Below are positions 18,474 through 54,227 of a DNA stretch of 64,000 nucleotides, piece after piece. Origin of the DNA: an uncultured Gammaproteobacteria bacterium. Its GTDB lineage: Bacteria; Patescibacteriota; Microgenomatia; Levybacterales; GWA1-39-11. Made by a program: the position numbers and the translations under genes. Every line of letters begins with the position of its first letter. Position 1 is the stretch's first letter. The notes beneath the pieces were generated by a model, which was given only the letters and a program-made list of their open reading frames with translations, was not told where the DNA came from and did not search any database. Where the stretch lies: NCBI GenBank assembly GCA_964641355.1, contig CAZXND010000001.1, positions 87,858 through 151,857 of the forward strand, in the 5' to 3' direction.

Positions 18474-20255
18474 TTACTTGTCAATAGTTGCATCAAAAAC
18501 CTGATCCTCATCAAGTCTAAAAATTCCTTCATCTAATCTTTTTTGATCTAAATAATGTGCTATAAAACCTACAGATCTAGACAATACAAATAGAGCATTA
18601 AAAAATTCAGCATCAATGAGTTTTTGTAATTCTTCAATGGTAAGGTTTTCTTTTTCACTCAAAATATCCAACAATACCGCTGCAATAACTCCATCAACAT
18701 TTAGGATTAGATTTCCCTTTTTCTCTGTGGTTACTTTTTCTACAGCAAGAGCAAAATCAGAAAATTTATTTTCTTTAAGATTTTCTTTGAATTTTAGGAT
18801 TTCAATAACTCTTGGATCAGGAGCATCAACTCTGTATTTTTTATGTCCAATTCCTGAAATATATTCTCTTTTAGAAGCGAACTCTTCAACAAAATCTGAT
18901 GGGTTTTTTTCATCAATTACTCCCTTAAACCAATTTTCTGCTGCTTGATTTATCGCTCCTCCAAACCGTGAACCAATCGTTAAAAGGCCAGAAGAAAGAG
19001 AGGATACAAGATCCTTTCCTGCTCTAGCAGTAATAATCGTATTTACCGCACCTGATACATAAGGACCGTGATCTACAGAAAGTTTTAATACTAAGTCAGT
19101 GAAATCTTCAAGTTCTTTTGATTTAGATTTTCTTCCCAAGAAGAGAGAAATAACTATATAAGAAAAAGAGTGTTCACCTGTAAACTTCACTAAATCTTCC
19201 CCAAGTATTTTTACATTTCCATCAACATCTTGAGATATACTTGTGGCAATTAGAGCATGACGTCTATCTTCCATCTCTCTTATTCTACTATAGTCCGACT
19301 CGGTTTTCACTTTTTCTTTTTCAATATTATTTATTAATTCTATAAATTCAGAAAAATTTTCTGCCACCATAACTCCTGCTTCGGAAAGAATTTTCTTTTT
19401 ACTTCTCGCTGATTCATCGACATCTTTTGCTATCGCCTTTGCATGACCAAATTGTGGGGGATTAGGAAAAACTTCTGCGACACTTCCTGCAATATAAGCG
19501 ATAACATTTTTGGTAATTTTTTTCTCGTAAATCAATTTTGCAATCTCGTATTCATCTACACCACCCAGTTCACCAAAATAGATAATGTGCTTTGTATTTC
19601 CATCTTTTTGAGCGGATAAAAATGCTTCAGTTGGAGTCAAAATGGGAAACCTTTCTCCTCCAAAAGAAAGTGCGAAAGAGAGCCTAAGACCAGAATTTGT
19701 TACCATTCTTATAATTTCATTTGTCATCCCTCCGGAAGAACTCATAACAGCTACATTTCCAGAGTCAAAAAGCGCTGAATCGATAAGTTGTCTTGGGTCA
19801 ACTCCTCCAATCGCACCAAGCTTTAAAATTTTAGGAATAATAAATCCAACACTAGCTGGACCTATTAAAAATTTATTATTATTTACAACTTTCGTATAAA
19901 GGTATAAAGAATGTTTTTCTGGCACCTCTTCAGCAAAAACTACCCCACCTAAGATGTTTTCAAAATCTAATAATTCATTCGAGTAATTAAGCGTTCTTCG
20001 TCCTGATGACAAATTGAGAAATAGGTTTGTATTTTCTGGAATTTCTTCAAACTCTGGAAAAACAGGGATCATAATTTCTTGCTTTCCAAAAAAATATCTT
20101 TCGTATTTTCTTCCAGAAGCAAATATTCCTACAATGCTAGGTTCTTTTTTACCAGCAAGAAAATCAAAATCAAGTATTGATTGGATTATAGAGGGATAAG
20201 ACCCAATTGTAACTATTTTAGCCTCGTATTTTCTTAATTTTTCAATATCTAACAT
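18474..20255 (-). CDS. aclA: ATP-citrate lyase large subunit (CoA-binding/SucD-like domain fused to a citryl-CoA lyase/citrate synthase-like domain)
   Basis: 593 aa; phosphohistidine motif QFGHAKAI. The C-terminal domain reads GIGHKKYRVDAPDPR...ALAVEKVTTEKKGNLILNVDG...FVLSRSVGFIAHYLDQKRL, almost identical to the corresponding ACLY segments. Confidence 0.85.
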   Translation of the reverse strand: MLDIEKLRKYEAKIVTIGSYPSIIQSILDFDFLAGKKEPSIVGIFASGRKYERYFFGKQEIMIPVFPEFEEIPENTNLFLNLSSGRRTLNYSNELLDFENILGGVVFAEEVPEKHSLYLYTKVVNNNKFLIGPASVGFIIPKILKLGAIGGVDPRQLIDSALFDSGNVAVMSSSGGMTNEIIRMVTNSGLRLSFALSFGGERFPILTPTEAFLSAQKDGNTKHIIYFGELGGVDEYEIAKLIYEKKITKNVIAYIAGSVAEVFPNPPQFGHAKAIAKDVDESARSKKKILSEAGVMVAENFSEFIELINNIEKEKVKTESDYSRIREMEDRRHALIATSISQDVDGNVKILGEDLVKFTGEHSFSYIVISLFLGRKSKSKELEDFTDLVLKLSVDHGPYVSGAVNTIITARAGKDLVSSLSSGLLTIGSRFGGAINQAAENWFKGVIDEKNPSDFVEEFASKREYISGIGHKKYRVDAPDPRVIEILKFKENLKENKFSDFALAVEKVTTEKKGNLILNVDGVIAAVLLDILSEKENLTIEELQKLIDAEFFNALFVLSRSVGFIAHYLDQKRLDEGIFRLDEDQVFDATIDK

Positions 20256-38124: not shown

Positions 38125-38852
38125 GAGTTGTCCATATCATCTAATCTTGCTTTTATAATTAATCTTTTCCAGGTTGTTCCTGGCGGCGTGCATGTAACAA
38201 TTGTTAAATAGCTCTCATCAAGTGATTGCGATAAAATATTTGTATCCTCTGGGTCCGTAATCGTTATTGAAAACACTTTGTACTGAAATTCTACTCCATT
38301 TACTTTAATTAAAACCTTATCTCCAACCTTTAAAGTATGAAGAGTTGCAAAAATAGCTTTATAATTTTTGGGGTCAAACAACTGAGGAAGAGTAGAGTGT
38401 CCGAAAATTACAGCATTTCCTTTTTCCGGAGGCGTAGAAGTTCCAAGATACTGTACAAGGTGTTTTGAAAGATCATAATCACGCGTTGATACTTCCGCAT
38501 CTAAGATCTTCAATCTTGGAATTGAAAATAAATATGAATCAACTTTTTTCTGATCGTATTGGTTTTTAATTTCAGGATACCAGTTTCTTGCATCAACATA
38601 ATCTGATCTAAACGAATCTAATCCCTGAGAGATCAAAGTGCCTATCCCCGTCTTTTTAACAAGATACTTTGGAACTGGAAGTTCTATTTCATTTTGAGCC
38701 AAAATCGGTGAGAGGAAAATCTGATAGGAAATCATAGGAAATAGAAAGTATGAAGTTAAAATGAATCCAAATAAAATTAATAAAGTGCCAAAAACTTTGA
38801 TGGAAACTTTTTTATATTTTTTCTTTCCCTTGACATAGTAATACTTACTCAT
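38121..38852 (-). CDS. Sortase family transpeptidase
   Basis: 243 aa; N-terminal TM, catalytic His in VIFGHST, and the TLxTC motif LTIVTCTPPGT. Confidence 0.75.
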   Translation of the reverse strand: MSKYYYVKGKKKYKKVSIKVFGTLLILFGFILTSYFLFPMISYQIFLSPILAQNEIELPVPKYLVKKTGIGTLISQGLDSFRSDYVDARNWYPEIKNQYDQKKVDSYLFSIPRLKILDAEVSTRDYDLSKHLVQYLGTSTPPEKGNAVIFGHSTLPQLFDPKNYKAIFATLHTLKVGDKVLIKVNGVEFQYKVFSITITDPEDTNILSQSLDESYLTIVTCTPPGTTWKRLIIKARLDDMDNS

Positions 38853-41067
38853 TTGATCGAATTAATAAATTGATATTCTTAGAATTAGTGGGAAGTTTGT
38901 TTGGAAATAACGGCAATTTATTTTTTAGTACAATCATGAAAGAAGAAACTCCCTTGGTATTATCCAAAATTTCTTTTGCATCGTTTATATTCTTACCTTT
39001 TAATTTTTCCGCTATTTCATCTGATTTTATTTTTGGAACAAAAACTGCATCCGCAACAAGCTTTGCTTTAATTTCACCATTCTTCTGGGTTTCAAAATTA
39101 GATAATTTAATTTTTGAATCTTCAGAAACATAATTATAATTTGAAGGAATTCCACCAGAATCATCTCTAATCACCTTCTCCAAATCAGAAACACTATACT
39201 TACCTACTTTAAAATTAATTTTGACTGCTAAATGCAAATCAGAAGACTGATCTCCTTTTTTCTTACTAAAGTTTTTAGCCACATACTCATAGTCAAAACT
39301 CTCAGGCAATAATTCTTCATCAGTAGCTTTTTGAGATGAAGCCTTTTCAATTGCTTGTTTTTCAAGACTACCAAATACTTTTGCTTCAAGAGTATCAAGA
39401 TCCTTTTGAGATACAGTCTTTATTTCTTTTTTTGTTCCACCAGAAAAAGCAGAATCATTTTTTGCGAGCACATCAGATTGTGAAAAGTCTCCGACACTAA
39501 AGTTTGTTCCAGAAGGAAGATTATATTCCGTACCAAATTTTGAAGCTTCAATTTTTACCTTTGCACTTGGAGGGGTTATAGCACTAGCACTAAAAGATGC
39601 AACAGAAACATTATCTACTAAAATAAACTTTAGGTTATTAGAAGATGTAATTACACTTCCTTTGTCAAAAGTTCTTTTTTGATCGGATTTATTGTAAACA
39701 GTAATTTCGCCCGTTGATTTATCTCCCGTTTCAGTTATTCCAGTAACATCGGCATCCCCTTCTCCACTTATTTCCTCATCAAAAATTGACACCTTAATAG
39801 AATTTCCTGAGGTAACTTCATTGGATGAAAAAACTAAATCAGATTTTTCATTTACAGACTTTCTGTCAGTAAACACAGAAATGTCCGCTTTAAGAATTAA
39901 TCCATAATACACAAAAGAGAATAAGAATAAGAGAATTAAAAAAACTACAGGGACCACCAATAACCCTGCTTTTTTCTGAGTACTAAAAACAGACGGTAAA
40001 TATATTTTTGGAAAAGAAATTTTTTCTGTTATATTTGAAATTCTCGAAAAAACACTTTTAGCTACTGGCACAGATGAAACATCATTAATTCTAATGTCTT
40101 CTACTTTATTTTCTCCCTTATCAAACTCCGGAATTATTAAATTACTTTCTTCATTTATAGACACTGGGGAAGCTTCATCTTCCACAGTATCCTCTTCTAC
40201 TTCGCCCTTAGCAAATTGAATATCTTGATCCTTTACAAATCCGAATTCTTGAGATTCAGATGTCATCAGTTTTTCAGCATTCTCCTCAACGTCCTTTCCT
40301 GCCTTTATCTCCATCTCAACACGATATCCCATTTGATTTCCAACGCCAGATATTATTGCCTCTTTCTCAAATCCCTTTTCAAGAACAACTGTCTGAGGGA
40401 TGTGTAAAAAAGGCAACTCTTTACTCCATTGATACGAAAGAAAACTCTGCTGAATTTCTTCTGCCTGCTCATAATCGAGGAGAACTATTTTAGAAGGTAA
40501 TACTTCAACATTTTCTATCTTTTTAAGCAGTTTTTCAACTGACCTCGGTAAGTCATCTTCCACATCACCACTTCTCGCCTCAATAACATTATCGTTTTTA
40601 ACGATATAAACATAAATTTTTCTTCCTCCTATTTCAACAAAAATCGAAGAAACTGGTGCACCTTCGGATTTCTTTACAAAAGATGTTATTGCCTCAACTG
40701 AAATTATAAAACCTATGGGAGTAAGGTCTAGTGCTTCACAAATACTTTTAAGTTTTGCGAGATATTCTTTTTTTATTTTTCCAGCATCAACCCAATCGTA
40801 AGGAACAGCAAAAATTGTTTTATTTAGCGGCACCCCTTCAGGAAGGCTTGTTTCTACGAAACTGATAACCTTATCTGATGCTGAGAGAATATCTTCTTCT
40901 TCAAAAGTGGAATTATTTAGAAGCTCGTCCTTTGTGGAAATAACGTGAAGGGACTGTCCTAGTTTTTCAAAAAGTATCGCTCCAACATTTCTAGAATTAA
41001 TAATTAAAGAAAGAAAATATTCTCTTTCCTCTTTCTTTTTATTTAAAAGCTTAGGCAGATTTATCAT
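38845..41067 (-). CDS. Bitopic membrane protein: cytoplasmic actin-like (PilM/FtsA/GspL-like) domain, one TM, then a large S/T/K-rich extracytoplasmic domain
   Basis: 740 aa. The first ~230 residues follow a PilM/FtsA-like strand pattern (VGAILFEK..., FAVPYDWVD, ICEALDLTPIGFIISVEAI, SSIFVEIGGRKIYVYIV); a single TM (LLVVPVVFLILLFLFSFVYYGLIL) lies near residue 370; about 350 aa follow outside the cell. The fold assignment comes from pattern only. Confidence 0.35.
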   Translation of the reverse strand: MINLPKLLNKKKEEREYFLSLIINSRNVGAILFEKLGQSLHVISTKDELLNNSTFEEEDILSASDKVISFVETSLPEGVPLNKTIFAVPYDWVDAGKIKKEYLAKLKSICEALDLTPIGFIISVEAITSFVKKSEGAPVSSIFVEIGGRKIYVYIVKNDNVIEARSGDVEDDLPRSVEKLLKKIENVEVLPSKIVLLDYEQAEEIQQSFLSYQWSKELPFLHIPQTVVLEKGFEKEAIISGVGNQMGYRVEMEIKAGKDVEENAEKLMTSESQEFGFVKDQDIQFAKGEVEEDTVEDEASPVSINEESNLIIPEFDKGENKVEDIRINDVSSVPVAKSVFSRISNITEKISFPKIYLPSVFSTQKKAGLLVVPVVFLILLFLFSFVYYGLILKADISVFTDRKSVNEKSDLVFSSNEVTSGNSIKVSIFDEEISGEGDADVTGITETGDKSTGEITVYNKSDQKRTFDKGSVITSSNNLKFILVDNVSVASFSASAITPPSAKVKIEASKFGTEYNLPSGTNFSVGDFSQSDVLAKNDSAFSGGTKKEIKTVSQKDLDTLEAKVFGSLEKQAIEKASSQKATDEELLPESFDYEYVAKNFSKKKGDQSSDLHLAVKINFKVGKYSVSDLEKVIRDDSGGIPSNYNYVSEDSKIKLSNFETQKNGEIKAKLVADAVFVPKIKSDEIAEKLKGKNINDAKEILDNTKGVSSFMIVLKNKLPLFPNKLPTNSKNINLLIRSNE

Positions 41068-42857
41068 GTAACTTTTGCGTATATTCTTCTAGTATTCTTT
41101 CCCGCTCCTTCCTCTTTTATAATCTTAAACGATTTTATTTCACCTGTAAAATCCACATGAGGACCTCCACAAAATTCTTTTGAATAATTTCCAACAAAGT
41201 ACACTTTTACATTGCTACTATACTTATCGTCAAAAAGACCTATCGCACCTATATTTTTAGCCTGATCTATAGACATGATCTCGAAGTGAACAGGAAGGTT
41301 TTCCTTTATCCTTGTCAAAACAATCTCATCAACCATTTTAACCTCCTCGTGTGTTAACTTTCTATCAAAAGAAAAATCAAACCTTAATCTCTCAGATGTA
41401 ATATTTGATCCTGTTTGGTGAACTGATTCTCCTAATACATCTCGTAACGCCTGGTGCAAGAGATGAGTTGCAGTGTGACCCTTAACCGTCAACTCTTCAT
41501 GGTCAGCTAATCCACCTGCAAATTTTTGTTTAGCTCCCTTTCTTGATAAATCTTGATGTTTTTTTATTTTCTCTACAAACTCTTCCTCAGAAAAAGTATA
41601 TCCCAAACTTTTAATTTGAGAGGGTGATAATCCATGCGTAGAATAAAGAGTAAATGCATCCTCTGAAGATATTTCTTTTACTCCCAAAATTTCATCTCCT
41701 ATATCGCGGTACTTTTTAATTATATAATTCTTTGCACTCTCAACTGTTCTTTTATATGTATTTTTCTCTTCTAAAAAGGTTAATTTAATATTCTCAAATT
41801 TTTTTAATAAAATAGAGTCTGTAGGAGAATATTGTTCGACTATTTTTTCTAGTACTAAATCCACATCATCAATCCCAAGCTTATATAAATTATCAATACC
41901 ACGTCTTATTAATCTTCTTAGTAGATATCCCTGTTCCTTATTTGAAGGTCTGATACCATCTGCTGCAATAAAAGAACCAGCTATAAAATGGTCTGAAACA
42001 ATTCTCATTTCTCGTTCGTTTTCTTTGTATTTTTTACCCGAAACTTCCTCAAGAGACTTCACAATTGGGAAAAAGAGGGATGTTTCAAAAATGTCATTTT
42101 TATCTTCTGTAGCAGCGATAAGCCTTTCAAGTCCTCCTCCAAAATCAACATTAGACTTGGGAAGTCTTTTAAACTCTCCGTCTTTTTCCTTCACGTATTC
42201 CATGAATACACTATTTCCAATCTCTAATAATCTCCCTTTATCAGACAACTCTTTAAAACTTCCCCCTATCTCTCCTTCTTCAGGTTTTAAATCAAAATAA
42301 ACCTCACTATCAGGACCTCCTAATTCGCCAGGAGGCATTTTCTCAGGAACTCCAGACCTCGACCACCAGTTATCCTCAACTCCACAATAAAAGATTCTCC
42401 CATTAGGGTTTATATTTTCGGAATTAAATAGTTCTTTCCAAATTTCAGCAGACTCATCGTCTTTTGGAATATTTTTATACCCTTCAAAGACACTTACATA
42501 AAGCCTTTTAGGATCTAATAACAATTCCTTTGTCAGAAATTCAAAGAACCAAGGGATCTGCTCACGTTTAAAATAATCACCCAAACTCCAATTCCCAAGC
42601 ATTCTAAAAAATGTTGTATGACGATTATCACCAATCTCATCAATATCTTGTGCGCGAAAACAATTTTGAACATTAACCAAACGTGTTCCCGAAGGATGCA
42701 CTTCTCCAAGAAGGTAAGGAATCAATGGCTGCATTCCAGATGAAGTAAAGAGTGTCGTGGGATCATTCTCTGGAATTAACGAAGAATTAGCTATTAAAGC
42801 ATGTTTTCTCTTCTCAAAAAAAGATATATAAATATTTACAATATCCTGAGCACTCAT
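41064..42857 (-). CDS. alaS: Alanine--tRNA ligase, short form lacking the C-terminal C-Ala domain
   Basis: 597 aa; class II catalytic core plus editing domain (HTATHLLHQAL ... CGGPHV), ending right after the editing domain. Confidence 0.85.
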   Translation of the reverse strand: MSAQDIVNIYISFFEKRKHALIANSSLIPENDPTTLFTSSGMQPLIPYLLGEVHPSGTRLVNVQNCFRAQDIDEIGDNRHTTFFRMLGNWSLGDYFKREQIPWFFEFLTKELLLDPKRLYVSVFEGYKNIPKDDESAEIWKELFNSENINPNGRIFYCGVEDNWWSRSGVPEKMPPGELGGPDSEVYFDLKPEEGEIGGSFKELSDKGRLLEIGNSVFMEYVKEKDGEFKRLPKSNVDFGGGLERLIAATEDKNDIFETSLFFPIVKSLEEVSGKKYKENEREMRIVSDHFIAGSFIAADGIRPSNKEQGYLLRRLIRRGIDNLYKLGIDDVDLVLEKIVEQYSPTDSILLKKFENIKLTFLEEKNTYKRTVESAKNYIIKKYRDIGDEILGVKEISSEDAFTLYSTHGLSPSQIKSLGYTFSEEEFVEKIKKHQDLSRKGAKQKFAGGLADHEELTVKGHTATHLLHQALRDVLGESVHQTGSNITSERLRFDFSFDRKLTHEEVKMVDEIVLTRIKENLPVHFEIMSIDQAKNIGAIGLFDDKYSSNVKVYFVGNYSKEFCGGPHVDFTGEIKSFKIIKEEGAGKNTRRIYAKVT

Positions 42858-47953: not shown

Positions 47954-49630
47954 CTAAATTTCAATAACAACGGGGACAACTAACGGCTCTTTTCCCTCTT
48001 GATATAACACCTCTTCAGCTTTTTCACTTAAAAGTTTTTTAATATGTATCCAATTAGAAACTCTTTCTTTCCTTTTTGATAGAATATTTCTTACTCTAGA
48101 CTCTATAGTATTAGAAAGCCGATTCTTATCTTGATACATAAATCCTTTAGTTATTAAGTCAAGTCTGCCTACCATTTGCCCATTATTAGAGTCTATTTCT
48201 GCTACAACAATAACAACCCCTTCTTCTGAGATCTTTTTTCTATCAAGCACAACGAAGTTTTCAACTTCTTCCTCTGTAATCTTATCGACAAAAACTGCCC
48301 CAGCATCAACTTTTCTACCAAAAGAATAAGTATCTTTTGAAAAAACGACCTCTTGACCATCCTCAAGAAGAATCGTATCATCACTTAAATATCCCATACT
48401 ATTTGCTATTTCCCGAAAAGCTACCATGTGTCTATAGGTTCCCCCTATGGGTATGAGAAACTTTGGAGCAGTTAGAGCAATCATAAGTTTAATATCCCCT
48501 TCTGAGCCATGTCCTGATACATGAAACTCATCCGTAATATCCGAGTAGACAACCTTAACTCTTTTTTTTGATATAGTGTCGATTAAAGAATTAACGCTTA
48601 TTTCATTCCCTGGAATTGGATCAGCAGAAAATATTACAACATCACCAGCCTTCATCCTAATATCTCGATCTTCATCGCTTGCTATCCTCACCAAAGCTGA
48701 CTCCTCTTGAGCTTGACTTCCTGCAACCAAAATAAGAACTTTTGACGGGTCGTATTTATTTATTTCATAAGGTTTTATTTCCATTTTTTTGGGAAGCTTC
48801 ATATAGCTAAGTTGTCGCCCAATATCACGAGATTTAAGAAAAGAACGACCTATAAAACATACTTTTCTTCCATACTTAGCCGCTACTTCTAGCGCCTGAT
48901 TCATTCTTGAAATATTTGAAGAATAAGTAGTTATAAAAACTTTTCCTTTAGCATTCCTAATCTCATCCTCAAAACTTTGGGAAATATCCTTTTCAGAAGC
49001 AGAGTGTCCCTTTCTTTCTGCCCCAAGCGAATCACAGAAAAGACATGTTATTCCTTGAGCTGATAATTGAGCGATTTTTCTAATATCAGAAGGTTTTCCA
49101 TCAACTGGGGTAAAATCAAATTTGAAATCACTAGCGTGAAAAAAATTGGCTGTTGGAGTTTTTATAAAAATATTGGCAGTATCCATAACAGAATGTGTTA
49201 CTCTTACAAAGGTTGCAGTAAAATTTCCTATTTTTATTTCCTCAGAAAAATTGACAATTTTAACTTTTTTATCAATTCTTCTATCGGCGAATTTTCCATT
49301 CTCAAGCTCAGCTGTAAGTCTTGAAGCAAAAATTGGAAAATCAGGAAGCTGGTTAATTAAAAATGGAAGCGCACCTATATGATCTTCGTGTCCATGAGTA
49401 AGAACCATTCCAACAATTTTTTTCTTAGTATTTTTTAAGTAAGTTATATCAGGGATCAAAAAATCTACACCAAGATCTGTTTCATTAGCAAATCCAAGAC
49501 CACAATCAACTATAAGAATCTCTTCTCCCCATTCATAGAGATACATGTTTTTAGTAACGTCACCAATCCCACCAATGGGTATAAATGATACTTTGTCTTG
49601 CATTAGGAATATTCTACCATTTGGAAACAA
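47954..49630 (-). CDS. rnj: Ribonuclease J
   Basis: 558 aa; metallo-beta-lactamase HGHEDHIG plus beta-CASP and C-terminal domain. Confidence 0.85.
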   Translation of the reverse strand: MFPNGRIFLMQDKVSFIPIGGIGDVTKNMYLYEWGEEILIVDCGLGFANETDLGVDFLIPDITYLKNTKKKIVGMVLTHGHEDHIGALPFLINQLPDFPIFASRLTAELENGKFADRRIDKKVKIVNFSEEIKIGNFTATFVRVTHSVMDTANIFIKTPTANFFHASDFKFDFTPVDGKPSDIRKIAQLSAQGITCLFCDSLGAERKGHSASEKDISQSFEDEIRNAKGKVFITTYSSNISRMNQALEVAAKYGRKVCFIGRSFLKSRDIGRQLSYMKLPKKMEIKPYEINKYDPSKVLILVAGSQAQEESALVRIASDEDRDIRMKAGDVVIFSADPIPGNEISVNSLIDTISKKRVKVVYSDITDEFHVSGHGSEGDIKLMIALTAPKFLIPIGGTYRHMVAFREIANSMGYLSDDTILLEDGQEVVFSKDTYSFGRKVDAGAVFVDKITEEEVENFVVLDRKKISEEGVVIVVAEIDSNNGQMVGRLDLITKGFMYQDKNRLSNTIESRVRNILSKRKERVSNWIHIKKLLSEKAEEVLYQEGKEPLVVPVVIEI

Positions 49631-50684
49631 ATTGAGTAATATTAGATTTATTTATGATAAATTTTTGATTTGGAGATATTTTCCCTTCGAGTATAAGTAG
49701 TGCTACTCTTCTTACAACACTTTGAATAGTTCTCTGTAAACTCCGAATTCCAGAATCATACCCTAAAGGTCTAACAATGTCATCCCAAACACTATCATCT
49801 ATTATTAAATCGTTAATTGTTAAACCCGATTCTGTCAAAATCTTAGGAAACATATGTGTTTTTGCTATTGTAATTTTCTCACTATCTGAATAAGACGGCA
49901 TTTGAATCATTTCAAGCCTATCAATAACAGCAGTTGAAATATCTTTAGTATTATTTGAAGTTGCTATAAATAAAACATCCGATAAATCAAATGGAAAATC
50001 AATATAGTGATCAACGAAGTTTTTGTTTTGTTCAGGATCAAGAATCTCAACAAGAACACCCATTATGTCTGCTCTTGCATCTTCACTCACCCTATCTATT
50101 TCATCAAGAAGAATTACTAGGTTTCGACTCTTTGCATGTTTCAGAGCTTTAATAATCGCCCCAGGTTCTGCGTCAGAAGAAAATCTTGATCGACCTCGAA
50201 GTTGAACAGGAGAACCCATTCCTCCGAAAGGAATTCTCTCAATCCTTCTTCCAAGAGCTTCAGCAATTGAATAAGCAATAGTAGTTTTACCAACTCCAAC
50301 AAGTCCCACTAAAGAGATTATGGGAGCACGTAAGATCTTTTCTCCACTTCCTGCAAATCTTTGCTCTTTAATTATCATTACCGAAAGATATTCAAGTATT
50401 TTTTCTTTAACATCAGCCAGTCCAAAGTGATTTTTATCAAGCACCTGACGAGCGTGATTAAGATCAAGAATATCCTTTGTTTCACTTTGCCATGGAAGAG
50501 AAGTTACCCAATCTATATATCTTGAAATATTGTCATATTCAATAAAAAAACTAGAATCCTTTTCAACAATTTTTAATCTTTCAAGAAGTGAATTCGCTTT
50601 TTCTTTTAAATCTTGTGGGAGACTAATAGATACAATCTTTTCTTCAAGTTTTTTAATTTGGACAGCTGTGGCAGATTGCTCCAT
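49614..50684 (-). CDS. Lon-like AAA+ ATPase module with no N-terminal LON domain and no S16 protease domain
   Basis: 356 aa. Residues 1-90 match the Lon pre-AAA helical segment (SLPWQSETKDILDLNHARQVLDKNHFGL). Walker A LVGLVGVGKTT, Walker B VILLDEIDR, sensor ATSNN...IDRLEMI. The ORF ends with ...GIRSLQR, where Lon's AAA+ module ends, and rnj follows immediately with overlap. Confidence 0.7.
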   Translation of the reverse strand: MEQSATAVQIKKLEEKIVSISLPQDLKEKANSLLERLKIVEKDSSFFIEYDNISRYIDWVTSLPWQSETKDILDLNHARQVLDKNHFGLADVKEKILEYLSVMIIKEQRFAGSGEKILRAPIISLVGLVGVGKTTIAYSIAEALGRRIERIPFGGMGSPVQLRGRSRFSSDAEPGAIIKALKHAKSRNLVILLDEIDRVSEDARADIMGVLVEILDPEQNKNFVDHYIDFPFDLSDVLFIATSNNTKDISTAVIDRLEMIQMPSYSDSEKITIAKTHMFPKILTESGLTINDLIIDDSVWDDIVRPLGYDSGIRSLQRTIQSVVRRVALLILEGKISPNQKFIINKSNITQFVSKW

Positions 50685-50708: not shown

Positions 50709-52934
50709 CTATCTTACGCGTCGATCTCTTCTTGGAGGAAAGTCTCTATTATTTCGGCTGGCGTTTCTTCCAGCAGGCCTTCTTACAAAATCTTCTCTTC
50801 TTCTTTCTCTATCTATTCTTTCGTCACGAACTCTCTGTGGTCTTTCTTGTCTTTCACCAAAAAGCATTGAAAGATTCACTCTTCCTTGATCATCAATTTC
50901 TTTTACTCTAACCTTTACTATTTGATCCAACTTTATTACATCATTGGGATTATTTACATAGTTTTCTGACATCTCCGAAACATGAACCATTCCTTCTTTT
51001 CCTGGAACTATCTCAACAAATGCTCCAAATGGAAGAATTCTCTTAACTTTTCCTTCAAAAACTTCTCCACGCTGCAACTCTCTTGTTAAAAGCTCAACCC
51101 ATGAAACCGCTTTTTCTACAGCCTCCTCATCAATTGAAGCAATTGTAACCGACCCATCCTCTTCCACATCTATTTGAGCGCCTGTTGAAGCAATAATATT
51201 TTTAATTACTTTGCCTCCACTTCCGATTACTTCTCCGATTTTTTCAGGATTAATTTTAATTACTTTTATTTTTGGAGCAAACTTTGATACACCAGTTCTT
51301 GACTCAGGAATAATTGAAAGCATTTTTTCAAGAATTGAAAGTCTTGCAACTTTAGCCTTTGCTAAGGTTTCTTCAATCTGCTCACGATTCAAACCAGAGT
51401 TTTTAACATCGAGTTGAATTGCGGTAACCCCGTTTTTTGTTCCTGCAACTTTAAAGTCCATATCTCCAGAAAAATCTTCCAAACCAATAATATCTGTCAT
51501 AATCACATATTTTTTATCATCCGACATCATTCCCATCGCAATTCCCGCAACTGGTGAGACTATGGGTACTCCAGCATCCATAAGTGCAAGAGTAGAACCA
51601 CAAGTAGAAGCCATCGACGTAGAACCATTTGATGACATGACTTCTGAAACAACCCTAACTGCATAGGGGAAACTTGACGCAAGTGGCATAACAGCTTCAA
51701 TCGCCTTTTCTGCAAGAGCTCCATGCCCAATCTCTCTTCTTGAAGGACTTCCCACTCTTCCAGTCTCACCTACTGAATACGGAGGCATAGAGTAGTGATG
51801 CATATATCTTTTTGCCTCTTCACCTTCAGGACTCTCGATTAACTGTTCATAAGAAGGCATGGCAAGTGTTGCCACTGTCAAAACCTGAGTATCTCCTCTT
51901 TGAAAGATTGCTGATCCGTGCGTTCTTGGTAAAATTCCAACCTTTACAGAAATAGGTCTAACCTCATCTGTTGGTCTTCCATCAGGTCTCTTCCCCTCGT
52001 TTAGAATTCTTTCTCTAACACTTTTTTTGAAAACGTAATCAACAGCATCCTTAATCTTTCTTTTGTCCTCGAAGTTTTCAGATTCAACCTTATAAACTTC
52101 TTCTCCCAATGCATCGATTTCACTACCTATTCCCTCACCAATTCCACCTTCCATCAGTTTTAGGATTTTATCTTTGTGTGATTTTTCAACTAGAACTATC
52201 GCTTCATCAAGTTTCTCGTCACGAGAAAGCTCAATCTTAGACTCCCCAACTTCTGCCACCATTTCATTAATAAAATCAACAATCTTTCCATTCCAAACCT
52301 TCGCCTCTTCAATTGCAGCAACAACTTCTTCTTCTGCAATTTGTTTACCTTCAGCTTCGATCATAATCGCCTTATCTTTTGTACCAGATACTACAACTTC
52401 TAAATCTGTGAATTCTTCTTCGTTCGTACCTGGATTTACTACAAATTCAATTTGTCCATTATCTCTAACAAGACCAATATTTATTCCACTAATAGGACCT
52501 TTCCAAGGAATTTTAGAAACAGCAAGAGCTGCTGAAGTAGCAATGATTCCAAGAACTCCTGGATCATTTTCTCCATCAACCGATAAAACAGTTACAACAA
52601 CTTGAACGTCTTTTTTTAGTTCTTTAGGAAAAAGAGGTCTTATAGATCTATCAATAAGCCTTGCTTTAAGAATTGCATCGTCAGATGGTCTTCCTTCACG
52701 TTTAACCCATTTGCTTCCCTTAATTCTTCCTCCTGCGTAAAGTCTTTCTACGTATTCAACGCTTAGAGGAAAATACCCAAGCTCAGTATCGTTACGACCC
52801 ATAACAACAGTTGACAAAACCATCGTATCCCCAAGCTTAGCAAGCACAGAAGAGGTTGCCTGTTGGGCTAATACTCCTGTTTCAAGTGTTAGATTGCTGT
52901 CTCCTATGAGGAGGGTTTTCGAGGAAATCTTCAT
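50709..52934 (-). CDS. pnp: Polyribonucleotide nucleotidyltransferase (PNPase) with an Arg/Glu-rich C-terminal tail
   Basis: 741 aa: two RNase PH domains, KH and S1 domains, then about 50 aa of tail (RQERPQRVRDERIDRERRREDFVRRP...RRDRRVR). Confidence 0.95.
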   Translation of the reverse strand: MKISSKTLLIGDSNLTLETGVLAQQATSSVLAKLGDTMVLSTVVMGRNDTELGYFPLSVEYVERLYAGGRIKGSKWVKREGRPSDDAILKARLIDRSIRPLFPKELKKDVQVVVTVLSVDGENDPGVLGIIATSAALAVSKIPWKGPISGINIGLVRDNGQIEFVVNPGTNEEEFTDLEVVVSGTKDKAIMIEAEGKQIAEEEVVAAIEEAKVWNGKIVDFINEMVAEVGESKIELSRDEKLDEAIVLVEKSHKDKILKLMEGGIGEGIGSEIDALGEEVYKVESENFEDKRKIKDAVDYVFKKSVRERILNEGKRPDGRPTDEVRPISVKVGILPRTHGSAIFQRGDTQVLTVATLAMPSYEQLIESPEGEEAKRYMHHYSMPPYSVGETGRVGSPSRREIGHGALAEKAIEAVMPLASSFPYAVRVVSEVMSSNGSTSMASTCGSTLALMDAGVPIVSPVAGIAMGMMSDDKKYVIMTDIIGLEDFSGDMDFKVAGTKNGVTAIQLDVKNSGLNREQIEETLAKAKVARLSILEKMLSIIPESRTGVSKFAPKIKVIKINPEKIGEVIGSGGKVIKNIIASTGAQIDVEEDGSVTIASIDEEAVEKAVSWVELLTRELQRGEVFEGKVKRILPFGAFVEIVPGKEGMVHVSEMSENYVNNPNDVIKLDQIVKVRVKEIDDQGRVNLSMLFGERQERPQRVRDERIDRERRREDFVRRPAGRNASRNNRDFPPRRDRRVR

Positions 52935-53288: not shown

Positions 53289-54227
53289 CTAAACATTTGG
53301 ATCATCTTGACCCTTGAAAACCTTTGGAACGAACCAATCGCTTGGAACATCTTCCTCATTAAAACCATTATTAAAATTCTGATTCTGAGTGATTGGCTTA
53401 GACTGTCTTACCTCTGTCTGATTCTGCACTTGAGCTTGAGGCTGTCTTCTTTGAAAAGAAGCACCTCCTTGCCCACGAACTTCATTTCGTACTTTTGATT
53501 GTCGTCTTGCACCATGTTTTAAAAGAAACGCTGCTGCTTCAAAAGCGTAAGGACTGGTTTTTTGAGAAGAAAAATCAGAAGTCGACCTTGATAATCCATC
53601 TAATAAATTTTGCGCTACATCAAGAGAAAATGGAAGCGATAATTCTGAGAGTATCTTGGATATAATTTCACTTGTTGAAGAAAAAGCAGAATCAACAAAT
53701 ACTAAATCTCCATAAAGCGAATTAGCAGGGTTATTGTCAATATTAACAATCTTAGCACCTGACAAATCAATTACTCCCGAAAGCTTATCTTGGCTTGAAA
53801 CACCTATTACAAAAACTAGACTGGGTGAAGAACCTTTCTTTATAAATTGAATCTCTTGATCGCTAAAATTAATACCATTCGTCTCAGCAAAAAGATTTAC
53901 ATTAAGACGATCTCCTTCTATATTATAGGAAACCTTCTCAATATCCCCATCTCTATATGGGACAGAAATAACAAGAGTTTTAGTACTCCCTTCAAACTCT
54001 CTTTTTATCTTATCTATACCAACCAAATTTGAAATTTCAACTATAGGTTCTTTTCTCGAAACTACTTGGACTGTTTTACCAAGATCTGAAAGAGACAGAA
54101 AAAGGCCTAATCCCGCAGCTGTTTTATCCAAATTTTGATCTCCACCAATAAATATCCCGATGCTTGGAGCTTGAGAGATTAAATCATTTAAAATATTTCT
54201 TGAACTTGCGAAGGAATTATCATTCAT
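53289..54227 (-). CDS. DHH/DHHA1-family (NrnA-like) protein with degenerate catalytic motifs and a Q/N-rich C-terminal tail
   Basis: 312 aa. It has an NrnA-like layout, but motif III reads VNIDNNP (DNN in place of DHH) and motif I reads GGDQNLD, with no GGGH in the DHHA1 part. It ends in QRRQPQAQVQNQTEVRQSKPITQNQNFNN. It sits between infB and rpsO. Confidence 0.45.
   Translation of the reverse strand: MNDNSFASSRNILNDLISQAPSIGIFIGGDQNLDKTAAGLGLFLSLSDLGKTVQVVSRKEPIVEISNLVGIDKIKREFEGSTKTLVISVPYRDGDIEKVSYNIEGDRLNVNLFAETNGINFSDQEIQFIKKGSSPSLVFVIGVSSQDKLSGVIDLSGAKIVNIDNNPANSLYGDLVFVDSAFSSTSEIISKILSELSLPFSLDVAQNLLDGLSRSTSDFSSQKTSPYAFEAAAFLLKHGARRQSKVRNEVRGQGGASFQRRQPQAQVQNQTEVRQSKPITQNQNFNNGFNEEDVPSDWFVPKVFKGQDDPNV

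Follow-up and report, generated by a model that had tools for sequence, protein, structure and literature searches.

The defining feature of Lon is that its AAA+ motor and its protease are fused in one protein. The AAA+ ATPases ClpX and HslU carry peptidase-docking elements (IGF loops and C-terminal tails), accessory substrate-binding domains and conserved aromatic pore loops, and are usually encoded next to the genes of their peptidases. LonC, such as that of Meiothermus taiwanensis, is an active protease with a degenerate and inactive ATPase. In genome-reduced bacteria such as Mycoplasma, Lon and FtsH are reported to constitute the minimal degradation machinery (PMC7737663). Here, we describe a gene, designated lonAAA, in a stretch of 64,000 nucleotides (the window) covering positions 87,858 to 151,857 of contig CAZXND010000001.1. 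The gene lies on the minus strand between pnp and rnj and encodes the bundle, the AAA+ module and the lid of Lon without the N-terminal substrate domain and the S16 protease domain. Proteins of the same architecture form one family in two classes of bacteria of the candidate phyla radiation (CPR), and their pore loop has been altered in a way that argues, by sequence, against a standard Lon-type translocase.

The open reading frame (ORF) at 49614..50684 encodes 356 residues from an ATG start to a TAG stop, and its exact sequence is also found in NCBI/Logan on a 242,876-bp contig. A scan with domain models, which the initial annotation had proposed, has shown that Pfam matches AAA at residues 125-261 and the Lon-specific lid (Lon_lid) at residues 285-335 and that neither LON_substr_bdg (PF02190) nor Lon_C/S16 (PF05362) matches the ORF. 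The NCBIfam model TIGR00763 (endopeptidase La) is covered only from position 254 to 568 of 795 (E 4.6e-96), and the score of 323 bits is below the trusted equivalog cutoff of 608.05; likewise, NF008053 gives 245.9 bits against a cutoff of 891, and there are weak ClpA/ClpB-type matches as well. The closest solved structures are all LonA or LONP1, with Bacillus subtilis LonA (PDB code: 3m6a) at the top over query residues 9-355 (E 1.2e-73). An AlphaFold2 (AF2) model built from a cross-class alignment of 59 family sequences has a mean predicted local distance difference test score (pLDDT) of 91.4 and a predicted template modelling score (pTM) of 0.85, with N-terminal helices at H5-19, H24-39, H46-62, H75-85 and H90-109. 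Foldseek superposes this model over its full length on the N-terminal-domain three-helix bundle (NTD-3H) and the AAA+ module of LONP1, Yersinia pestis Lon and M. taiwanensis LonA with TMq values of 0.82-0.87. Pfam, the 3m6a alignment and AF2/Foldseek thus agree that the three-helix bundle of LonA, the AAA+ module and the Lon-type lid are present, and the ORF ends 21 residues past the lid. The protein is a stand-alone Lon bundle, AAA+ module and lid without N-domain or S16 domain, just as the initial annotation had described it. The features of the gene are as follows.

49614..50684, minus strand: complete ORF of the protease-less Lon-derived AAA+ ATPase, 356 residues and stop (Pfam, NCBIfam, structure search).
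50358..50672, minus strand: residues 5-109, end of the LonA long helix and NTD three-helix bundle with Y56/W59 (LonA alignment, AF2 helices, PMC7239648).
49899..50333, minus strand: residues 118-262, AAA+ large alpha/beta subdomain (Pfam AAA, AF2, Foldseek).
50280..50306, minus strand: Walker A, G127-LVGVGKT-T135 (invariant residues in the family).
50160..50198, minus strand: pore-loop 1, residues 163-175, RGRSRFSSDAEPG (alignments, PMC7239648).
50100..50117, minus strand: Walker B, residues 190-195 (VILLDE), with D194/E195 (family-invariant).
50058..50090, minus strand: residues 199-209, segment equivalent to pore-loop 2 (family alignment).
49980..50024, minus strand: residues 221-235, pre-sensor-1 (PS1) beta-hairpin, a hallmark of the HCLR clade, with Y227/D229 (alignment, AF2, PMC7239648).
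49953..49955, minus strand: sensor-1 N244 (family-invariant).
49917..49919, minus strand: trans-acting arginine finger R256 (family-invariant).
49680..49892, minus strand: residues 265-335, Lon-type lid or small alpha subdomain (Pfam Lon_lid 285-335, alignments).
49743-49745, minus strand: codon of sensor-2 R314 within the lid (family-invariant).
49617..49679, minus strand: residues 336-356, conserved C-terminal tail (alignments, AF2).

Conservation was assessed in 80 Levybacteria-type sequences and in the 59-sequence cross-class alignment. G127, G130, G132, K133 and T134 of Walker A, D194/E195 of Walker B, N244 of sensor 1, the arginine finger R256 and R314 of sensor 2 are invariant in both sets (80/80 and 59/59), and so the Walker and sensor motifs are as intact as the initial annotation had stated. 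The equivalent catalytic residues of Y. pestis Lon are K362, D423/E424, N473, R484 and R542 (PMC7239648). The aromatic pair Y56/W59 of NTD-3H and the PS1-hairpin residues Y227/D229 are also kept, corresponding to Y294/W297 and Y456/E458 of Y. pestis Lon, respectively (PMC7239648), and in the AF2 model the PS1 hairpin appears as short paired strands ahead of beta4. The bridging glutamate E218, which corresponds to E447 of Y. pestis Lon, is conserved in most family sequences. Since the trans-acting arginine finger is invariant, the ATPase site would lie between subunits, and together with the mostly kept E218 this naturally suggests assembly into an oligomeric ring. In the C-terminal tail, N348 is invariant and K350 and F352 are also conserved. 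The tail (residues 336-356) ends at the point where the S16 domain of LonA starts. The AF2 model places a strand, E342-344, in this tail; it probably completes the lid sheet, and this would account for the retention of the tail. In sequence and predicted fold, the protein thus has the features of a catalytically competent AAA+ ATPase of the HCLR clade.

Pore-loop 1 differs markedly from that of Lon. RGHRRTY[VI]GAMPG of Lon is replaced by RGxS[RK]xxxDAEPG in the family, and the window ATPase reads RGRSRFSSDAEPG. The T-Y-V-G positions of Lon are F-S-S-D in the window ATPase, so that the tyrosine is a serine, a change that the initial annotation had missed. Across the clade, the tyrosine position is occupied by F, Y, S, E, V, M or N, and the Gly and Met of Lon are replaced by nearly invariant Asp (D171) and Glu (E173) residues. 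In Y. pestis Lon, Y398 and I399 form the aromatic-hydrophobic pair that grips the translocating polypeptide, and Y398 intercalates with the chain (PMC7239648). Since the tyrosine is not conserved and the Asp and Glu residues are fixed, the substrate grip is expected to be unlike the aromatic hand-over-hand threading of Lon; the acidic pore may favour basic segments. Other derived features are Walker A of the form G[LIV]xGxGKT[TS], as opposed to GPPGVGKT in Lon, a pore-loop-2 segment R204-x-D206-I-M208-G/A, as opposed to RGDPxSA in Lon, and a lid signature W300...R305-P-L-G-Y-D-S-G-I-R314, in which the position after G is [YF] across the clade. Next to sensor 2, the lid therefore reads RPLGYDxGIR in the family and YTREAGVR in LonA. 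Judged by sequence, the protein is not a Lon protease, as it has no S16 domain, no N-domain, no equivalog-level score and no conserved pore-loop tyrosine.

Relatives are truncated in the same way. The best 120 matches among 5.8 billion proteins are 347-437 residues long and 62-77% identical, all contain AAA and Lon_lid, and their names, where given, are Levybacteria, Woesebacteria or Patescibacteria. Among reference contigs with one genome per species, 548 stretches encode a relative, and in all of the best 80, which were examined, the homolog is 348-463 residues long and ends 3-20 codons past the lid, the variation in length being confined to the N-terminus. The relatives that the initial annotation had suggested comparing therefore share the truncation, both in these 80 species and in Dojkabacteria. 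Many of the metagenome-assembled genome records among them (L001-L079) are titled 'uncultured Gammaproteobacteria bacterium'; by gene content and synteny they are CPR bacteria of the Levybacteria type, and the titles look like placeholder mislabels. Between close species pairs with protein identities of 82-95%, the ratio of nonsynonymous to synonymous substitution rates (dN/dS) is 0.03-0.12 with synonymous sites near saturation. The family is under strong purifying selection and, by this measure, is a working protein.

When the deeper branches are used as seeds, a profile search retrieves proteins of 350-630 residues without S16, of which the named ones are mostly Candidatus Dojkabacteria/WS6; these are labelled 'AAA family ATPase' in NCBI, 'ATP-dependent Lon protease' in JGI and 'Lon protease' in UniRef. 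The Lon-core regions of 150 representatives, drawn from 1.84 billion protein clusters, were placed in a neighbour-joining tree, in which the protease-less proteins of Levybacteria/Woesebacteria and Dojkabacteria (WS6) form one clade, and the canonical Lons with a single module or tandem modules lie outside it. Since a single clade spans the two classes, the loss of both flanking domains is most simply explained by one ancient event before these CPR classes split. Full-text searches of the literature returned no account of a protease-less Lon, nor any of Lon in CPR, Patescibacteria or Dojkabacteria. In the literature searched, neither the altered pore loop nor the conserved loss of domains is described, and the family, although present in databases, is uncharacterised.

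The missing domains were also sought around the gene. A tblastn search with the N- and P-domains of Escherichia coli Lon gave nothing in the window or in the first 80 loci. Hidden Markov models (HMMs) of the S16 domain and the N-domain were built from 55 and 51 canonical sequences, respectively, and run against six-frame translations of the window and 91 loci (1.27 Mb in total). The S16 HMM has no match in the window or in the 90 related loci and detects only the phage Lon of L091, which served as the positive control (E 8e-66); the N-domain HMM has no match in the entire set. These results, together with an intact rnj, agree with the initial annotation, which had seen no protease domain in another frame of rnj and would have been overturned by one. 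No gene for a peptidase partner is found within 7-10 kb of the gene in the 90 loci from two CPR classes, and a scan of ten further ORFs of the window turned up no protease or chaperone that could be its partner, so that this idea was rejected as well. PADLOC gives no significant defence model for the ORF, only generic AAA matches (DolB at 31-43 bits and TRIP13 at about 20 bits, compared with 323 bits to Lon), and a role as a defence-system component was rejected because these matches are weak and generic.

Several Lon-like proteins from outside the window were considered as fusions, intermediates or split forms and rejected. P0121-P0124, P0127 and P0137 are Lons of 889-1675 residues with two or three tandem canonical modules, each consisting of the three-helix bundle, AAA and lid, and one S16 domain; the two modules of P0124 are nearly identical. 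They rank high because the module scores add up, and they were rejected as Rosetta-stone fusions since both modules carry canonical Lon motifs. P0202, which is 49% identical in the AAA region, was rejected as an N-less, protease-bearing intermediate because it is a canonical Lon encoded by a phage. It lies at 10001-12157 of L091, has no recognisable N-domain, and is encoded beside genes for portal, terminase, lysozyme and D5 primase, with an AAA and VWA gene pair just upstream. P0231 (L084 5001-6023; L085 1417-2439) is a Lon-type ATPase of 340 residues with canonical motifs and no S16. It was rejected as a split Lon with an adjoining S16 ORF because no S16 gene follows it; it lies in a phage-like island of small ORFs with AAA, VWA and nSTAND3 genes that resembles the L091 setting.

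The neighbouring genes of the window and the insertions found next to lonAAA in related loci are as follows.

50709..52934, minus strand: pnp (PNPase), immediate upstream gene (Pfam, synteny).
47954..49603, minus strand: rnj (RNase J), immediate downstream gene, with the likely ATG at 49603 (Pfam, synteny).
L013 2222-5682; L037 4330-6956; L035 5359-7001; L053 5113-6974: insertions in the pnp-lonAAA gap.

As the initial annotation had noted, lonAAA lies between pnp and rnj, and both genes are intact, full-length and on the same strand. It had also stated that rnj overlaps the 3' end of lonAAA, leaving no space for the missing domains. The second part is correct, as there is no space for a protease domain under either rnj start. 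The overlap of 17 nucleotides, however, stems from a mechanical choice of TTG at 49630 as the rnj start. Since alignments of rnj homologs start at about residue 10, the ATG at 49603, which is 10 nucleotides beyond the lonAAA stop, is the likelier start, and so the two genes are more probably 10 nucleotides apart. The pnp stop is 24 nucleotides upstream of lonAAA, no terminator-like site is present in the pnp-lonAAA or lonAAA-rnj junction of the window, and pnp and lonAAA are probably co-transcribed, judging from this arrangement.

The nine-gene order nusA-infB-orf312-rpsO-pnp-lonAAA-rnj-ftsK-orf206 is retained nearly everywhere among the 80 Levybacteria-type loci, down to 47% identity, and the pnp-lonAAA-rnj order is found in essentially all of them. 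The lonAAA-rnj junction is often -6 to about +20 nucleotides. The pnp-lonAAA gap is variable and at times holds unrelated mobile genes; it is a recurrent insertion site for group-II-intron-type reverse transcriptases, IS200/Y1-transposase-like genes and toxin-antitoxin pairs. The genes in this gap were rejected as partners because they are heterogeneous mobile insertions. Since the whole block is colinear, the adjacency may be inherited synteny only, and hence eight deeper contexts, mostly from Dojkabacteria (L081-L083 and L086-L090), were compared. In three of them (L086, L087 and L090), pnp is directly beside lonAAA and rnj follows 1-2.5 kb downstream after udg; in L083, pnp is four genes upstream. 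In the other four (L081, L082, L088 and L089), the gene is elsewhere, twice beside an M23 peptidase gene. The M23 gene directly follows the Lon-like gene in two of L081, L082 and L089, and all three, which are Dojkabacteria loci, have a conserved type IV secretion-like cluster (PrgI / TraC-like / VirB4-like) just downstream on the opposite strand. The order pnp-lonAAA-(udg)-rnj is probably ancestral to both classes, judging from these contexts, and it is not an obligatory link. The synteny is a lead for function, not proof.

Two further observations concern these neighbours. The PNPases of the Levybacteria loci (L001-L080) have an Arg/Gly-rich tail of 50-120 residues after S1, which is probably disordered and in many of them embeds a conserved motif, [SD]EHPL[SA]xQF[RK]RE. 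The tail of the window PNPase (residues 691-741; 50712-50864, minus strand) has 19 Lys and Arg residues out of 51 and no such motif, and the tails of Dojkabacteria PNPases are Lys-rich and only 4-28 residues long. The Arg-rich tail was therefore rejected as a matched substrate of the acidic pore, being specific to Levybacteria and without the conserved motif in the window copy. The ORF of 312 residues between infB and rpsO (53289-54227, minus strand) occupies the usual place of rbfA/truB and has no Pfam match and only a faint NrnA/DHH-like NCBIfam match (E 9e-4). Its counterpart is at the same position in all Levybacteria loci and is a Pfam-less protein of 420-442 residues in Dojkabacteria.

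We lean, with moderate confidence, towards the view that lonAAA encodes a functional stand-alone ATPase derived from LonA, which would form a ring and remodel or partly unfold proteins at its pore without a protease. A LonA ancestor would have lost the N-terminal substrate domain and the C-terminal S16 domain long ago. The subunits would assemble into a ring in which the arginine finger completes the active site in trans, and ATP hydrolysis would drive the remodelling or partial unfolding of protein substrates, rather than nucleic acids, at the axial pore with no degradation. The pore chemistry would have shifted from aromatic to acidic, with a grip that may suit basic segments, and in Levybacteria the gene would be co-transcribed with those of PNPase and RNase J. 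Several points weigh against this view. Isolated AAA+ fragments of LonA form poor hexamers without the protease ring, which leaves the assembly of a ring uncertain. The pore-loop aromatic is variable and is replaced by Glu in 10 of 33 Dojkabacteria sequences, which weakens the case for processive unfolding and makes processive threading doubtful. The remodelling activity is predicted from sequence and modelled fold, and a peptidase partner acting in trans may be encoded elsewhere in the genome, as the negative searches cover the window and the loci. In a 2026 preprint, the chaperone-like activity of LonP1 is assigned to the N-domain, which is absent in the family. A precedent in favour comes from LONP1, whose anti-aggregation activity is reported to need ATP hydrolysis and not proteolysis (PMC8368198).

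Other explanations bear on the same evidence. The short length of the ORF is all that would suggest a decaying remnant or an assembly artefact of a full-length lon gene; over 80 species and thousands of proteins in databases share the same boundaries, dN/dS is 0.03-0.12 with invariant catalytic residues, the neighbours are intact and no S16 remnant is present in any frame, so that this explanation is refuted. A split Lon, in which the ATPase half passes substrates to an S16 or other self-compartmentalised peptidase encoded by a gene of its own, as in ClpX-ClpP and HslU-HslV, is rather unlikely. It would account for why the family has kept the entry pore of NTD-3H, the PS1 hairpin and the stretch that precedes the protease domain in LonA, including the invariant N348, and the HCLR relatives ClpX and HslU operate in this way. 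However, operon partners usually cluster and no S16 gene lies within 7-10 kb in the 90 loci, the threading tyrosine of the pore loop is not conserved, and the conserved tail may be accounted for by completion of the lid fold in the AF2 model. To our knowledge, no natural split LonA has been described.

The gene order raises the possibility, which we consider unlikely, that the protein is an accessory of RNA decay, namely the energy-dependent part of a degradosome-like assembly of PNPase and RNase J in CPR bacteria that might strip basic RNA-binding proteins from RNA, remodel them or regulate the nucleases. The pnp-lonAAA-rnj order throughout the Levybacteria-type loci, the tight lonAAA-rnj junctions in many of them, the pnp-lonAAA adjacency in three of the eight deep contexts with pnp near in a fourth, and the junctions free of terminator-like sites are in agreement with this, and an acidic pore could engage Arg-rich segments such as the Arg/Gly-rich PNPase tails of Levybacteria. 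However, the adjacency may be mere inherited synteny of the colinear block from nusA to ftsK, the gene is elsewhere in four of the eight deep contexts, Dojkabacteria do not share the PNPase tail, which in the window is without the embedded motif, and acidic pore loops speak against direct threading of RNA. A bolder form of this idea is improbable in our judgement: Lon of Microgenomates and Dojkabacteria would have become a protease-free motor with an acidic pore, ancestrally co-transcribed with pnp and rnj, that acts as the ATP-dependent part of an RNA-decay assembly in CPR bacteria, where it would, for instance, pull nuclease tails or RNA-binding proteins rich in Arg/Lys away from RNA. If so, it would fill the role of the DEAD-box helicases of other degradosomes and leave the cells without Lon-type cytosolic proteolysis. 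The AAA+ and alpha domains of Lon bind DNA in several species, and a nucleic-acid-directed ATPase that keeps and specialises this property to act on DNA would fit the frequent neighbours udg and ftsK and the match to a structure titled 'DNA-binding ATP-dependent protease La' (PDB code: 6n2i). This is very unlikely, since the fixed Asp and Glu of the pore loop make contact with nucleic acid there unfavourable, the protein has gained no DNA-binding domain and the neighbours vary.

Two classes of ultra-small CPR bacteria keep, under strong selection, a Lon motor that has no cutting domain and a rewired gripping loop, and the family is a natural experiment on the Lon AAA+ ring minus its protease and N-domain. 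If their genomes hold no other Lon, labels such as 'ATP-dependent Lon protease' in the style of KEGG or JGI overstate the proteolytic capacity, and CPR proteostasis would be unlike the textbook minimal set. The ancient placement beside pnp and rnj provides a concrete, testable lead on function.

Elsewhere in the window, the minus strand encodes a short alanyl-tRNA synthetase of 597 residues with the catalytic core and SAD only (41064-42857). Its gene end overlaps by 4 nucleotides with an ORF of 740 residues (38845-41067, minus strand) that has no Pfam/NCBIfam match and may be the split or replaced C-terminal region of the synthetase. Another minus-strand ORF of 593 residues (18474-20255) has both a CoA-ligase domain and a citrate-synthase C-terminal domain; such an architecture resembles that of ATP-citrate lyase and would not be expected in a small CPR genome.

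Compared with known systems, the family most resembles LonA (MEROPS family S16; 3M6A of B. subtilis, 4YPL/7FD4 of M. taiwanensis, 6ON2 of Y. pestis, and human LONP1), with which it shares the bundle, the AAA+ module with the PS1 hairpin and the lid at 34-40% identity, E values down to 1e-73 and TMq 0.82-0.87, with catalytic motifs at equivalent positions. It differs from LonA in having neither the LON N-domain nor the S16 Ser-Lys protease domain, in the pore loop (TY[VI]GAMPG to xxxDAEPG) and in Walker A (GPPG to GLxG). ClpX and HslU are AAA+ ATPases of the same HCLR clade without a fused protease, as the family is, but their docking elements, accessory domains, conserved aromatic pore loop and adjoining peptidase gene are not seen in it. 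Proteolytically inactive Lon/LONP1 is a precedent for a Lon ATPase that is useful without proteolysis (PMC8368198); these proteins are full-length with the N-domain, whereas the family is without it. P0231 is another protease-less Lon-type ATPase that ends after the lid, but it has the canonical motifs GPPGVGKT and RGHSRTYVGSLPG, groups with the canonical Lons in the tree and lies in a phage-like island, and so, by sequence, it is an independent truncation outside the family clade. LonC, like the family, derives from Lon in nature with the loss of one of the two activities, and the two are roughly mirror images: in the family, it is the ATPase that appears to be active and the protease that is absent.

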